IMG/VR virus record: IMGVR_UViG_2695420739_000014 | Location: 1-4,226 of that record | Reading direction: 5' to 3' (one strand) | Origin: a virus | Lineage: Duplodnaviria > Heunggongvirae > Uroviricota > Caudoviricetes | Length of the DNA stretch: 4,226 bases | Part shown: piece after piece, positions 1 through 4,226 of the stretch | Position numbering within the stretch: the stretch's first letter is position 1 | How the letters are laid out: the number at the start of each line of letters is the position of its first letter | Made by a program: the position numbers and the translations under genes | Notes under the pieces: model-generated | Databases searched by the model: none | Told to the model about the DNA's origin: nothing | Seen by the model: only the letters and a program-made list of their open reading frames with translations

Positions 1-228
1 CGTGGCTGTCTGGAATATGACGTCAGCGCCACCGACATCACCAGCTCGTTTATGGCTATCCGCAAGAGCATGACCAGCAGCGGACGCAGCGCCACCTATG
101 AGGCCAGCCGCAGCGAGGAAGCCAGCCACGCCGACCTCGCCTGGGCGACCATGCATGCCCTGTTAAATGAGCCACTCACCGCCGGTATCAGCACCCCGCT
201 GACATCCACCATTCTGGAGTTTTACTGA
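1..228 (+). CDS. P: Terminase large (ATPase) subunit, C-terminal 75 codons only; the 5' end lies upstream of the window (P2 gpP-like)
   Basis: Frame 1 is open from base 1 to TGA at 226-228 (translation ends ...ASHADLAWATMHALLNEPLTAGISTPLTSTILEFY*). The stop overlaps the portal ATG as TGATG. Position directly upstream of the portal gene and co-oriented matches the P2 P-Q late operon. Not in the ORF track because it has no long start-to-stop ORF inside the window. Confidence 0.75.
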   Translation, partial: RGCLEYDVSATDITSSFMAIRKSMTSSGRSATYEASRSEEASHADLAWATMHALLNEPLTAGISTPLTSTILEFY

Positions 229-1262
229 TGAGCAAGAAAAAAGGGAAAACACCGCAACCTGCGGTAAAAAAAATGGCCGCCAGCGCCCCGAAAATGGAGG
301 CATTCACCTTTGGTGAGCCGGTGCCGGTGCTCGACCGCCGTGACATTCTGGATTACGTCGAATGTATCAGTAACGGCAGATGGTATGAGCCGCCGGTCAG
401 CTTTACCGGTCTGGCAAAAAGCCTGCGTGCTGCCGTGCATCACAGCTCACCGATTTACGTCAAACGCAATATTCTGGCCTCGACATTTATCCCACATCCG
501 TGGCTTTCCCAGCAGGATTTCAGCCGCTTTGTGCTGGATTTTCTGGTGTTCGGTAATGCGTTTCTGGAAAAGCGTTACAGCACCACCGGCAAGGTCATCA
601 GACTGGAAACCTCACCGGCAAAATATACCCGCCGTGGTGTGGAAGAGGATGTTTACTGGTGGGTGCCGTCCTTCAACGAGCCGACAGCCTTCGCACCCGG
701 CTCCGTGTTTCACCTGCTGGAGCCGGATATTAATCAGGAGCTGTACGGCCTGCCGGAATATCTCAGCGCCCTTAACTCTGCCTGGCTGAATGAGTCAGCC
801 ACGCTGTTCCGCCGCAAGTATTACGAAAACGGCGCTCATGCCGGATACATCATGTACGTCACCGATGCCGTGCAGGATCGCAACGATATCGAAATGCTTC
901 GCGAAAACATGGTTAAGTCGAAAGGCCGCAACAACTTTAAAAACCTGTTTCTCTATGCCCCGCAGGGGAAAGCTGACGGCATTAAAATTATCCCGCTCAG
1001 TGAAGTGGCGACGAAGGACGATTTTTTTAATATCAAAAAAGCCAGTGCCGCAGACCTGCTGGACGCGCACCGCATCCCCTTTCAGTTGATGGGCGGCAAG
1101 CCGGAGAACGTCGGGTCGCTGGGTGATATTGAGAAAGTGGCAAAGGTCTTTGTCCGCAATGAGCTTATCCCGTTACAGGACAGGATTCGGGAAATAAACG
1201 GCTGGCTCGGTCAGGAGGTCATCCGCTTTAAAAACTACTCACTGGACACTGACAACGGCTGA
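228..1262 (+). CDS. Q: Phage portal protein (P2 gpQ-like), 344 aa
   Basis: Complete ORF ATG 228 to TGA 1260-1262. GGAG at 216-219 sits 8 nt upstream of the ATG. The translation (MSKKKGKTPQP...EAFTFGEPVPVLDRRDILDYVECISNGRWYEPP...) is recognisable to me as the P2-family portal; length and position next to the terminase gene and about 170 bp from cos agree with P2. Confidence 0.93.
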   Translation: MSKKKGKTPQPAVKKMAASAPKMEAFTFGEPVPVLDRRDILDYVECISNGRWYEPPVSFTGLAKSLRAAVHHSSPIYVKRNILASTFIPHPWLSQQDFSRFVLDFLVFGNAFLEKRYSTTGKVIRLETSPAKYTRRGVEEDVYWWVPSFNEPTAFAPGSVFHLLEPDINQELYGLPEYLSALNSAWLNESATLFRRKYYENGAHAGYIMYVTDAVQDRNDIEMLRENMVKSKGRNNFKNLFLYAPQGKADGIKIIPLSEVATKDDFFNIKKASAADLLDAHRIPFQLMGGKPENVGSLGDIEKVAKVFVRNELIPLQDRIREINGWLGQEVIRFKNYSLDTDNG

Positions 1263-1267
1263 ACATC

Positions 1268-1289
1268 GCCGCCTGCGGGCGGCTTTTTT
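1268..1289 (+). terminator. Rho-independent terminator downstream of the portal gene
   Basis: Perfect 6-bp GC stem GCCGCC (1268-1273) / GGCGGC (1278-1283), 4-nt loop TGCG, followed directly by TTTTTT (1284-1289), starting 6 nt after the Q stop codon. Confidence 0.8.
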
Positions 1290-1431
1290 ACACCCTGTCA
1301 TCACGCCCTCACACGCTCACCACCGCACAAAACACCCCGCAGACACACCAACGCCTCAACGGGCAGACTAAACGCCGTCACGACGCGCTCAGACGCTGAA
1401 AAAATAAAATCAGCACCACCGCCAGCGCGCA

Positions 1432-1450
1432 GTGCTTTCCCCGCCTCGCC
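1432..1450. other. cos cohesive-end site of a P2-like phage (19 nt)
   Basis: GTGCTTTCCCCGCCTCGCC at 1432-1450 is the reverse complement of GGCGAGGCGGGGAAAGCAC, which I recall as the 19-nt cohesive end of phage P2. It lies in a gene-free gap between the portal gene and the converging replication/cargo genes, as in P2. Confidence 0.85.
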
Positions 1451-1540
1451 CGCCCGCTTCATGGGACGCTTTTAATGCAGGAGCATCAGGAGCCTCGCGC
1501 CGCGCCAGCGCTGGTGCTGACTGGCAAATTCTGAAATAAA

Positions 1541-1558
1541 AAACGAATGCAAATTCAT
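1541..1558 (-). terminator. Weak candidate intrinsic terminator downstream of the DUF2971-like gene
   Basis: On the - strand, 21 nt after the TAG stop: 6-bp AT-rich stem AUGAAU (1558-1553) / AUUCGU (1548-1543) with one G-U pair, loop UUGC, then UUUUUUAUUU. The stem is weak, so this is tentative. Confidence 0.3.
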
Positions 1559-1578
1559 GCACCGTATGTATGCAGAGG

Positions 1579-2397
1579 CTATTTAGACTCAAGTTGGATT
1601 TTATAATTTGTAAAATCAGCTTTTGCTGTCATTATTTCAATGCCATTTTTTTTGGCGAAATTTTCAATAAAAACTCGCATATCTCCGGATAGACGCTCGC
1701 CAATAATTATCGCATCAATGCAACATCCTTGCAGGGGAACTTCGATACCACTCTGATGTTCATAAACAGCCTCAGTATCGAGGAAATGCAAGCTTCTTAC
1801 CTCATCCTCTCGCTCCCAATCAGAATGTTTAACAAGTGCAAAATCAAAATTCACAGACACCGGTTCACCACGAGCCATCTCAAGGAGATATTTATAAAAA
1901 TCAACTCTAGGGGCTTTATCGTCATATGTAACATCAAAAAGTTCAATACCCGACCCCTTCAACCTTTCTCTATTATATGCAAAACATATTCCTTTCATTC
2001 CGTTTCCATAATAACCCCACATCAATCTACTATTATAGTTTTTAGTAAAACTTGCTACTGCAACATTCTTTTGAAACTCGATTAGAAAACCACTAGCAAA
2101 ACCGTCCCCCCACACTTCATCAAAGCGTTGATAAATCTTACCAAGCTCATTTTTATCTAATAGTTCTCGAAGCTCCCTCCCTTCACCTGTAATTTTATCC
2201 AATCTATCTATCAGGGTTGATATATCCGACTTATCGAAATACTTAAGGGATTCTTTATCAAAATGATAAAACATGTCAAATGGGTCATTAAGAATGCTAT
2301 TTTTGGAATGCCAAATAGCATTGTTAACAAGCTCATTTATAGTATTGATGTTATCCCCTCTAAACCTGAAGATATGAGTTGCACTTGAAAGAATCAT
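1579..2397 (-). CDS. DUF2971-like protein (272 aa), AT-rich accessory gene; candidate defence/abortive-infection effector, function unknown
   Basis: ORF from ATG (2397-2395) to TAG (1581-1579). AAGGGG Shine-Dalgarno-like sequence 5 nt upstream of the ATG. Spot counts give about 27-42% GC per 60-nt block against about 60% in the portal gene. Motifs I associate with DUF2971: N-terminal ...AIWHSKNSILNDPFDMF... and central ...LMWGYYGNGMKGICFAY... No Walker A P-loop. Confidence 0.8.
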   Translation of the reverse strand: MILSSATHIFRFRGDNINTINELVNNAIWHSKNSILNDPFDMFYHFDKESLKYFDKSDISTLIDRLDKITGEGRELRELLDKNELGKIYQRFDEVWGDGFASGFLIEFQKNVAVASFTKNYNSRLMWGYYGNGMKGICFAYNRERLKGSGIELFDVTYDDKAPRVDFYKYLLEMARGEPVSVNFDFALVKHSDWEREDEVRSLHFLDTEAVYEHQSGIEVPLQGCCIDAIIIGERLSGDMRVFIENFAKKNGIEIMTAKADFTNYKIQLESK

Positions 2398-2510: not shown

Positions 2511-2741
2511 TCAACGTGGCCGCGGAATTATCGGACCTCTCGCTGGTATGAATGATCCATTTTGCTGATTGCTGATATCACGGAGCTTACCGTAATTATC
2601 CCTGACTATTTCGGCACACCCGACCAGCTCGTCAGGCGTCAGATTTTCGTTAACCATAATCTGCTGTAGACGGTGAACAATAGCCATCAGCTTGATATTT
2701 TTAGTTTTATGTTGCGGTATCTCGCCTGGTATTCTGTGCAT
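2511..2741 (-). CDS. Hypothetical small protein (76 aa from the ATG at 2741; the ORF-track start at 2753 is a GTG)
   Basis: ORF ends at TGA 2513-2511. The ATG at 2741-2739 overlaps the TAA stop (2743-2741) of the upstream gene as TAATG, suggesting translational coupling. No strong Shine-Dalgarno sequence and no family recognised (MHRIPGEIPQHKTKNIKLMAIVHRLQQIMVNENLTPDELVGCAEIVRDNYGKLRDISNQQNGSFIPARGPIIPRPR). Confidence 0.4.
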   Translation of the reverse strand: MHRIPGEIPQHKTKNIKLMAIVHRLQQIMVNENLTPDELVGCAEIVRDNYGKLRDISNQQNGSFIPARGPIIPRPR

Positions 2742-3196
2742 TATCCAAGCCACCCGTTTTGCTGTGCACGCTCCATCTGTTCATCTGAATAGTTCCATGC
2801 TCCATCCGTGGCAACCATTGCCCCGCCAGACATCCCCGTCTCTGGTTCATACATAACAGCAAGGCCGAGCTGATGCATAATTTCATGATTAATTCTGAAT
2901 ACCAGACCACGCTCACTAAGTTCTTTCCAGTTCACAATCTCATATGCGCCTGTATTAAGCAGCTCAATACTTAGCAAGACATAATCTTCCAGCCAGTCTG
3001 ACAGGTCAGTAACATCTGTTATCCGGGCTTCAACCTTTCGCCCCGTATACACACCCTGTACCCATTCATGCAAAATCAACGTGTCCCCGCGCTCATAATT
3101 ACGGTCATTTTTCCGAAACTCTGCGCGTTTCTTTCCTTCCAGCACAAGGTCAAAATATTTGGCGTGCAGCTTTACCTCGTGAATTTTTGCCATCAT
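2741..3196 (-). CDS. DUF3850/ASCH-like (PUA-fold) domain protein with C-terminal HExxH motif, 151 aa
   Basis: Start assigned to ATG 3196-3194, which overlaps the TGA stop of the A-like gene (3195-3193) as ATGA; GGAG lies 5 nt upstream. The ORF-track start at 3229 is a GTG inside the A coding region and is less likely. N-terminal MAKIHEVKLHAKYFDLVLEGKKRAEFRKNDRNYERGDTLILHEW... resembles DUF3850/ASCH domains. HEIMH is encoded at 2887..2873. Stop TAA 2743-2741. Confidence 0.75.
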   Translation of the reverse strand: MMAKIHEVKLHAKYFDLVLEGKKRAEFRKNDRNYERGDTLILHEWVQGVYTGRKVEARITDVTDLSDWLEDYVLLSIELLNTGAYEIVNWKELSERGLVFRINHEIMHQLGLAVMYEPETGMSGGAMVATDGAWNYSDEQMERAQQNGWLG

Positions 3197-4226
3197 TTCC
3201 ACTCCATTACTGTTGAGAATCCCGGCCACTCATCAGCGACCGGATACGTGAATTTTTTCCCGTCATAATTTACGGTCGCGCCACGCGCCAGCGCCTCAAG
3301 CTCCCATCGCTGCGGCCTGATACCGTTCTGAGCAAGGTCAACGCGGATACGGGTAATTTGCATTCTTTCCGACCGGGTCAGTCTGGCCGATGGTGCAATT
3401 TCATGTGGTTTTAACGGGCTTCCGTTTCTCTGCTGACGGTTTGGCGTTCGCAGGTCGTGTTTTAATGCGCCCCTGAGCGCCCTCACGACCTCCGGTTCAT
3501 TCCATTCAATAACACCGTCATCAACCAGATTAAGCACGGCTGCGGCGTGCTCAGAAGGTGTGGGAGCCGGTAACGAAGTATCACCACCGGTGAGCTTTCC
3601 ACAGTTATTGACAGGACTCCGAGGCGCGGCGATGCCGCTTTTTAAAGTCAGAGGCTCAACGACCGGAACTTTCGGCACAATGCGCCAGTCCGTCGTTCTG
3701 GTGATATGAATATGACGCGCGCCGAGATGCGGCGCGTAAATGCCGACCACTCTCTCGACTTCTTCCTCGTACTCGTTAACTTCATCCGACGGACTACGGG
3801 CGACCCTGACAGTCTGACAATCGCGCGGGACATTTGCCCCACCCTGCGCGCTGATATACAACGCAAAATCACCACTGTCTGCGGCGGCGCGTGCAGCCTC
3901 GACGCGCTCGTCAAACTCATCAGCAATGCTGACGCCGCGAGGCAATTTGCGTAGTTCACGGTAAGCCCCCATTGTCGGCAGACCAACCGTTTTAAATTGT
4001 GGGATGCGCCACGTTGACGCCCATGCGGTAACAGCCGCAGCAGTGTCTTTCAGCGGTCTGCCGGTATCGTTATCGAGCTGACCATCCAGTGCATAGCCAT
4101 CGATGTTTTTTGAGATGTATTTCGCGATATACCCCGCAGCACCGCCCTGGTTAAGGTGTTTTGCCTGAAAACGGTTTCGCGCGGCTCCTCTTTCGTCGCC
4201 ATCCTCTTTGAGCGCATAGCGACGCA
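3193..4226 (-). CDS. A: Rolling-circle replication initiator endonuclease (P2 gpA-like), C-terminal ~344 codons; the 5' end lies outside the window
   Basis: The - strand frame is open from the window edge (4224) to TGA 3195-3193; the ORF track shows only the part from the internal ATG at 3972. The translation contains GAAGYIAKYISKNIDG with two tyrosines four residues apart, matching the Y-x-x-K-Y active-site arrangement of P2 A as I recall it. If the first tyrosine is Y450, the implied total length is about 761 aa, the size I recall for P2 A. Confidence 0.85.
   Translation of the reverse strand, partial: RRYALKEDGDERGAARNRFQAKHLNQGGAAGYIAKYISKNIDGYALDGQLDNDTGRPLKDTAAAVTAWASTWRIPQFKTVGLPTMGAYRELRKLPRGVSIADEFDERVEAARAAADSGDFALYISAQGGANVPRDCQTVRVARSPSDEVNEYEEEVERVVGIYAPHLGARHIHITRTTDWRIVPKVPVVEPLTLKSGIAAPRSPVNNCGKLTGGDTSLPAPTPSEHAAAVLNLVDDGVIEWNEPEVVRALRGALKHDLRTPNRQQRNGSPLKPHEIAPSARLTRSERMQITRIRVDLAQNGIRPQRWELEALARGATVNYDGKKFTYPVADEWPGFSTVMEWK
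3608..3627 (-). other. Candidate replication origin / A-protein nick site inside the A coding region
   Basis: The - strand reads GCGCCTCGGAGTCCTGTCAA. The P2 ori is known to lie within gene A; I recall the nick-site sequence only approximately, so this is tentative. It is flanked on the + strand by a GC hairpin GCGGC-GAT-GCCGC (3626-3638) followed by TTTTT. Confidence 0.35.

Follow-up and report, generated by a model that had tools for sequence, protein, structure and literature searches.

The 19 nucleotides at positions 1432–1450 very probably represent the cos cleavage sequence of a P2-like phage (Peduovirus) in the joined state, as present in a prophage or a circularized genome; this assignment was deduced from sequence comparisons covering the window, i.e., the whole stretch of 4,226 nucleotides analyzed in this study. 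Within the window, GTGCTTTCCCCGCCTCGCC occurs a single time, on the plus strand, and is the exact reverse complement of GGCGAGGCGGGGAAAGCAC, the sequence of both cosL (positions 1–19) and cosR (positions 33575–33593) as annotated in the P2 reference genome NC_001895. Read on the minus strand (1450–1432), it belongs to the P2-type cos sequences of Peduoviridae and P4, given by GGCGAGGCGGGGAAAGCAC or a close variant. The first-pass annotation had matched the sequence, on the reverse strand, to the P2 cohesive end and had proposed an alignment to the P2 reference ends as a check; this match was correct, as the alignment to cosL and cosR was identical at 19/19 positions. For P2-related phages, PMC3931495 gives the same sequence for the 5'-extruding cohesive end. 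Furthermore, comparison of the Q-to-cargo intergenic region with phage records revealed that the linear records of P2, Wphi, L-413C, fiAA91-ss, HQ103, P24A7b, and others start (base 1) exactly at window position 1450, and thus, for many linear records, the deposited genome ends coincide with the edge of the 19-mer. Nothing contradicts the identification as P2 cos. Together with the orientation of the window, it is correct but ordinary, since approximately 40% of complete E. coli genomes contain a cos region of this kind. The sequence of P2 cos was already known in 1974 (Padmanabhan et al. 1974; see also Ziermann and Calendar 1990, both as cited in PMC3931495 and PMC9122126).

A chance match in GC-rich intergenic DNA playing no role in packaging is vanishingly improbable. 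The region is indeed GC-rich (approximately 60%), but 200 dinucleotide-preserving shuffles yielded, on average, 0.01 matches to the 19-mer even with up to three mismatches allowed, and the 19-mer sits within approximately 150 bp that can be aligned to the cos regions of P2, P4, and 186. The exact identity at 19/19 positions and this alignment of the surrounding cos region rule out the chance reading.

Flanking genes and the map junction

The features recognized in the window, given with their coordinates and strand, are as follows:

1..228, plus strand: gpP, large terminase, C-terminal 75 codons (stop codon 226–228; Pfam Terminase_6C, E = 2.5e-11)
228..1262, plus strand: gpQ portal, complete, 344 aa (Pfam Phage_portal; 339/343 aa identical to P2 gpQ)
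1266..1290, plus strand: Rho-independent terminator after gpQ, the tQ equivalent (GC stem 1268–1283, then a T run)
1425..1486, no strand assigned: cos core (GCGCGCA, the 19-mer, and CGCCCGCTTCATGGGACGCTTTTAATGCAGGAGCAT; at least 90% conserved per column among 112 unique P2-type and P4-type cos regions)
1432..1450, no strand assigned: cohesive-end sequence, 19 nt, exact reverse complement of P2 cosL/cosR
1499..1520, no strand assigned: right-arm block 2 (CCGCGCCAGCGCTGG), including the right arm of the inverted repeat 1410–1429/1501–1520
1543..1575, no strand assigned: right-arm block 3 (ACGAATGCAAATTCATGCACC...ATGTATGCAG; approximately 90% conserved in the P2-like and P4-like sets)
1579..2397, minus strand: cargo gene, 272-aa DUF2971 protein (Pfam DUF2971, E = 1.8e-5; PADLOC PDC-S31; phrog_1762)
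2511..2741, minus strand: 76-aa ORF with its start overlapping the stop codon of the Orf91-like gene (phrog_11386, E = 4.7e-43; also called in relatives)
2741..3196, minus strand: Orf91-like gene (DUF3850/ASCH and DUF7415 in Pfam; phrog_1812; 150–151 aa in relatives)
3193..4226, minus strand: gpA replication endonuclease, C-terminal 343 codons, open to the window edge (Pfam Phage_GPA)
3590..3650, minus strand: P2 replication origin region inside gpA (61/61 identical to P2 29862–29922)

The order gpA, Orf91-like gene, cargo gene, cos, gpQ, and gpP identifies the window, by its gene content, as the place where the right and left ends of a P2-like (Peduovirus) genome are joined, and confirms the first-pass annotation, which had assigned it to this junction of the phage map. 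As in other P2-type genomes, the 19-mer lies between the portal gene with its terminator (gpQ stop at 1262, terminator stem 1268–1283) and the right-end accessory region. The distance from the portal stop codon (1260–1262, closing the ORF 228–1262) to cos, previously estimated at approximately 170 bp, was measured as 169 nt, compared to 167 nt in P2 (20–186), in which tQ is annotated at the matching place (160–181). For the P2 genes of the window, the relationship is very close: the gpP part shares 74/75 amino acids with residues 516–590 of P2 gpP, the gpA part 339/342 with residues 419–760 of P2 gpA, and the flanking genes on both sides reach 99% amino acid identity to P2. The P2 nick site at 29892 corresponds to window position 3620. 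P2-like phages of Escherichia and Yersinia were the best database matches, with everything in common but the cargo. For annotation, cos sets the zero point and the orientation of this P2-like element and delimits its defense hotspot on one side.

Regarding the remaining genes, the Orf91-like gene occupies the position of P2 Orf91, downstream of A, and the 76-aa ORF at 2511–2741, for which no Pfam match was obtained, has no counterpart in P2. From approximately position 2590, within this ORF, the window is again homologous to other P2-like phages. A truncated A gene, as suggested by the apparent start at 3972 in the ORF list, was rejected, since translation revealed an uninterrupted frame between 4224 and its stop codon at 3193, reaching the window edge.

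These flanks also bear on a second explanation, namely that the 19-mer originates from a P4-like satellite or an engineered cosmid instead of a P2-like phage, which is extremely improbable. The left end of P4 (NC_001609) carries the same 19 nt, and 54–63 of the approximately 116–118 IMG/VR cos regions examined were found without a P2-type left arm. However, the window features gpQ/gpP on one side and gpA with the Orf91-like gene on the other, and neither psu/gop/int nor vector sequence was found; the arrangement of a P4-like satellite cos, with psu/delta/sid on one side and a gop/int hotspot on the other, is therefore not that of the window. Moreover, the left arm in the window is identical to that of P2-like prophages. 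The flanking genes rule out an origin from a satellite or a cosmid.

Architecture of the cos site and its predicted cleavage

For the analysis of the site beyond the 19-mer, the circular junctions of P2, P4, and 186 were constructed and aligned with the window, and 116 cos regions with the exact 19-mer (112 of them unique) were gathered from IMG/VR, approximately half of them with and half without a P2-type left arm. As estimated from conservation, the full cos site extends over approximately 1425–1575 and consists of a 62-bp core including the 19-mer, followed in the direction of the right end and the cargo by two conserved blocks. The core (1425–1486) aligns without gaps to P2, P4, and 186 and matches the conserved core of approximately 55 bp, common to P2, P4, and relatives, that is attributed to Ziermann and Calendar 1990 in PMC3931495 and PMC5694545.

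Deviations of the core from the consensus are confined to positions 1466 (A), 1469 (C), and 1481–82 (GA), where the window carries minor alleles; all of these are polymorphic columns, in which all or most bases occur among 126 elements. Compared to P2 itself, three differences were recorded, located in the right half of the core and likewise all at columns that vary among these elements. Only 4 of the 126 elements, all of them with the same cargo, match the window over the entire 62-bp core. None of them is a phage isolated as virions, and hence no isolated phage proves that this variant works.

Block 2 comprises a conserved stretch at approximately 1499–1515 (CCGCGCCAGnnCTGG), conserved to 50–90% in the P2-like and P4-like sets, and contributes to a 20-nt inverted repeat (1410–1429/1501–1520, 85% complementary) that brackets the cos core. 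Since this block (CCGCGCCAG..CTGG) was found in P4 and 186 and is missing from P2 itself, it is probably dispensable. Block 3 is centered on ATGCAAATTCATGCACC and is kept in P2, P4, and 186; the cargo gene ends directly beside it, with its stop codon at 1579. Four ATGCA motifs in the same orientation were located on the plus strand (1475, 1547, 1557, and 1570), in blocks conserved in all three phages. Their number in the right arm of cos (four in 130 nt, compared to 0.19 expected; Poisson P approximately 5e-5) suggests that they possibly act as terminase recognition elements. An Rfam scan of the window returned no RNA family match. By sequence, the cos site is complete and should be a substrate for any P2-type terminase.

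In a comparison with known cos sites, the window shares with P2 the cohesive end, the location after gpQ and the terminator, the core, and the ATGCA block, the Q-side arm being approximately 95% identical; the three core substitutions and the possession of block 2 set the window apart. P4 has the 19-mer and the core in common with the window, as well as the two right-arm blocks, and passages of PMC9122126 describe a defense hotspot directly beside its cos; unlike the window, it is flanked by psu and gop/int instead of gpQ and gpA, and the Q-side homology ends approximately 7 nt out. The cos site of phage 186 (NC_001317) shows the same architecture and right-arm blocks and is likewise preceded by the portal gene (W) with a terminator, whereas its cohesive end (GGCGTGGCGGGGAAAGCAT) differs at 2 of 19 positions. 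The lambda cos resembles the site in the staggered terminase nicks at a defined position that produce 5' cohesive ends, but features a 12-nt overhang of unrelated sequence; a search for the lambda 12-mer in the window gave no match. P2 is reported to package circular monomers, and lambda concatemers.

According to established P2 biology, the gpM/gpP terminase would recognize cos on replicated phage DNA, and cleavage at the cos of the window by this enzyme can be presumed by homology. The strands would be nicked 19 nt apart, with predicted cut positions between 1431 and 1432 on the plus strand and between 1450 and 1451 on the minus strand, leaving 5' overhangs; this geometry was deduced by analogy from the annotation of 186 ('top strand cut at 5' end and bottom strand cut at 3' end') and from the 5'-extruding ends described in PMC3931495. 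The DNA would then be translocated through the gpQ portal and packaged, and after injection, the 19-nt 5' sticky ends of the virion DNA are expected to re-anneal, ligation restoring the sequence at 1432–1450. In P2, cos is necessary and sufficient in cis for packaging, given that deletion of cos from a P2 lysogen prevented the formation of progeny and that P2 packaged a plasmid carrying a P4-derived cos (PMC9942202).

Packaging competence of the element

The first-pass annotation had also described the packaging genes as apparently intact and the element as possibly still packageable. The first statement holds for the portal gene, which is complete with 344 aa; of the terminase, only 75 of the 590 gpP codons lie within the window. 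The second is plausible and partly supported, the complete cos, the open reading frames, the low dN/dS values, and the identical origin all being consistent with it. The window represents 4.2 kb of an element of approximately 31 kb; of gpP, it includes 13%, and it contains no part of gpM, gpN, gpO, or the capsid, lysis, and tail genes. As gpM, 87% of gpP, and the capsid and tail genes lie outside, packageability cannot be established from the window. Likewise, the internal, joined cos says nothing about recent activity, because this state is normal in every integrated P2-like prophage, with attP located far from cos. P2-like prophages are not known to be inducible by UV.

All visible frames are uninterrupted, i.e., gpQ is complete, the C-terminal parts of gpP and gpA as well as the Orf91-like gene and the cargo gene are open, and neither stops nor frameshifts were found in these five genes and gene parts. 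Relative to P2, gpQ had a dN/dS of 0.05, and the C-terminal parts of gpA and gpP had values of 0.08 and 0.15, respectively; selection on the P2 genes of the window is purifying. Furthermore, in all ten assemblies encoding an identical cargo protein, the gene order of P2 was complete across 20 kb (10 kb to either side), namely int, C, cox, B, ..., A, Orf91-like gene, cargo, cos, Q, P, O, N, M, L, lysis, R, S, and V. These ten elements occupy two chromosomal sites, and Escherichia coli ES5 represents a third.

It is conceivable that cos is intact while the element is a defective P2-like remnant, in which cos and the open gpQ have merely persisted and could at best serve a co-resident helper; we regard this as unlikely but by no means negligible. 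In addition to the restricted gene content of the window, the remnant of a P2-like prophage at the cpxP–fieF site (L182; GCA_023100505.1, JALMKS010000040.1, 5794–11259) speaks for it. This remnant encodes the identical portal protein, shows 0/169 mismatches in the Q-to-cos arm, and retains the 19-mer unchanged, despite a deletion from mid-gpN to gpD, by which ogr adjoins gpO. The features from which packageability had been deduced thus also occur in defective elements. Moreover, in ES5 (L016, NZ_CP133871.1), a relative with 98.4% identity, the P2-family major capsid gene (15486–16558) is annotated as frameshifted, which may reflect real decay or a sequencing or assembly error. Against a defective remnant stand the complete gene order in 10 of 10 same-cargo loci, the absence of stops and frameshifts from the five genes and gene parts, the purifying selection, and the origin region identical to that of P2, as well as the possibility that the ES5 frameshift is a sequencing error.

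Cargo gene and possible module exchange at cos

Where P2 carries old and tin at its right end, the window harbors the DUF2971 cargo gene, with a GC content of approximately 36% compared to approximately 55% in the flanks. The PADLOC profile PDC-S31 (PDLC04990) matched the protein over its full length (E = 5.8e-33, residues 5–270 of 272), and the Pfam DUF2971 model scored 26.4 bits compared to a cut-off of 22; querying the PDB with its sequence returned no match. On the basis of these profile matches, the cargo is a candidate single-gene anti-phage defense. DUF2971 was predicted to adopt an ADP-ribosyltransferase fold related to DarT and AbiGi (PMC12522546), and Aristaios, a lactococcal single-gene antiphage system, is a DUF2971 protein (PMC11381338). 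By analogy with this literature, anti-phage or ADP-ribosyltransferase activity may be considered a candidate function of the cargo. The interval between gpA and gpQ beside cos is the anti-phage hotspot described in passages of PMC9122126 and of a further study (NAR 2026, PMC13586616). The window conforms to it in having a low-GC accessory gene with a defense-candidate profile match between cos and Orf91/gpA, and in sharing its backbone with other strains that carry different cargos, and it differs in that DUF2971/PDC-S31 is not named in the passages of the two papers that were searched. The cargo adds another example of a DUF2971/PDC-S31 candidate defense gene in the hotspot.

The identical portal protein was found beside at least seven different hotspot contents, among others HATPase and methylase, HNH, FRG and reverse transcriptase, a 515-aa reverse transcriptase, and HIRAN and exonuclease. 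Comparison of two groups of elements (loci L006–L015 and L177–L186) allowed the junctions between backbone and cargo to be mapped. Five of the elements encoding the identical portal protein, with a left arm identical to that of the window (0/169 mismatches), possessed five unrelated right arms and cargos, the first mismatches being located at 1461–1466 and followed by heavy divergence. Conversely, ten elements sharing the right arm and the cargo of the window (0–2/130 mismatches) differed in the left arm at 3–43 positions, the last mismatch being located at 1377–1422. Taken together, the limits on both sides imply that the exchange junctions are bracketed by 1423–1460, that is, by cos itself. 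The same comparison indicates that the right arm of cos moves together with the cargo rather than with the terminase genes.

The distribution of variable sites among the same-cargo elements follows this boundary. Per 200 nt, 15–32 variable sites were counted in nearly every bin of gpP/gpQ (six in the first 200 nt), 0–4 from approximately 1400 to approximately 3200, and 7–23 in gpA, the low diversity of the cargo being built in by the selection of loci by exact protein identity and its end positions still being informative. The SNP density rises again at approximately 3200–3400, in gpA.

These results raise the possibility, which we put forward tentatively, that the 19-nt cohesive end serves as the crossover point for swaps of defense cargo in P2-like phages. 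The pattern suggests, as a hypothesis drawn from a small sample, that heterologous linear genomes may be joined via their identical sticky ends and that a second, homologous crossover may take place near the Orf91/gpA boundary (approximately 3200–3400). If true, end-joining at cos would provide a homology-independent route for module exchange. In this picture, at the nucleotide level, the swappable module would begin at cos and take in its right arm. The junctions at cos fit the speculation of Rousset et al. 2022 that cohesive ends seed recombination, as worded in a passage of PMC9122126. For 186-like prophages, a replacement by retron DNA starting at cos was described by Dodd and Egan 1996, as cited in a passage of PMC5694545.

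Distribution of the cos region and its relatives

Among 5,426 complete E. coli genomes, matches to the 101-bp cos region were obtained at 2,937 positions, distributed over 2,151 genomes (approximately 40%). Among species representatives, the exact 19-mer was recovered from Escherichia, Salmonella, Klebsiella, Raoultella, Kosakonia, Phytobacter, Yokenella, Atlantibacter, and Dickeya. Further exact copies came from isolates labeled Vagococcus and Sphingomonas, as well as from metagenome-assembled genomes and bins labeled as Bacillota, Phycisphaerales, Fretibacterium, Clostridiales, Lachnospiraceae, Chloroflexales, and Verrucomicrobiia. These off-taxon occurrences (loci L144, L145, L146, L150, L160, L162, L165, L167, L169, and L175) possibly represent mis-binned or contaminating DNA of enterobacterial phages.

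The whole window is shared with five complete E. coli chromosomes at 97.9–98.4% identity, ES5 being the best match. Exact-protein look-ups with the cargo and portal proteins yielded no locus identical to the window, the best one reaching 98.84%. An exact 61-mer containing the private allele 1296 T gave no match in GTDB species representatives or JGI metagenomes; in IMG/VR, the same 61-mer was matched three times, in all cases next to a different cargo.
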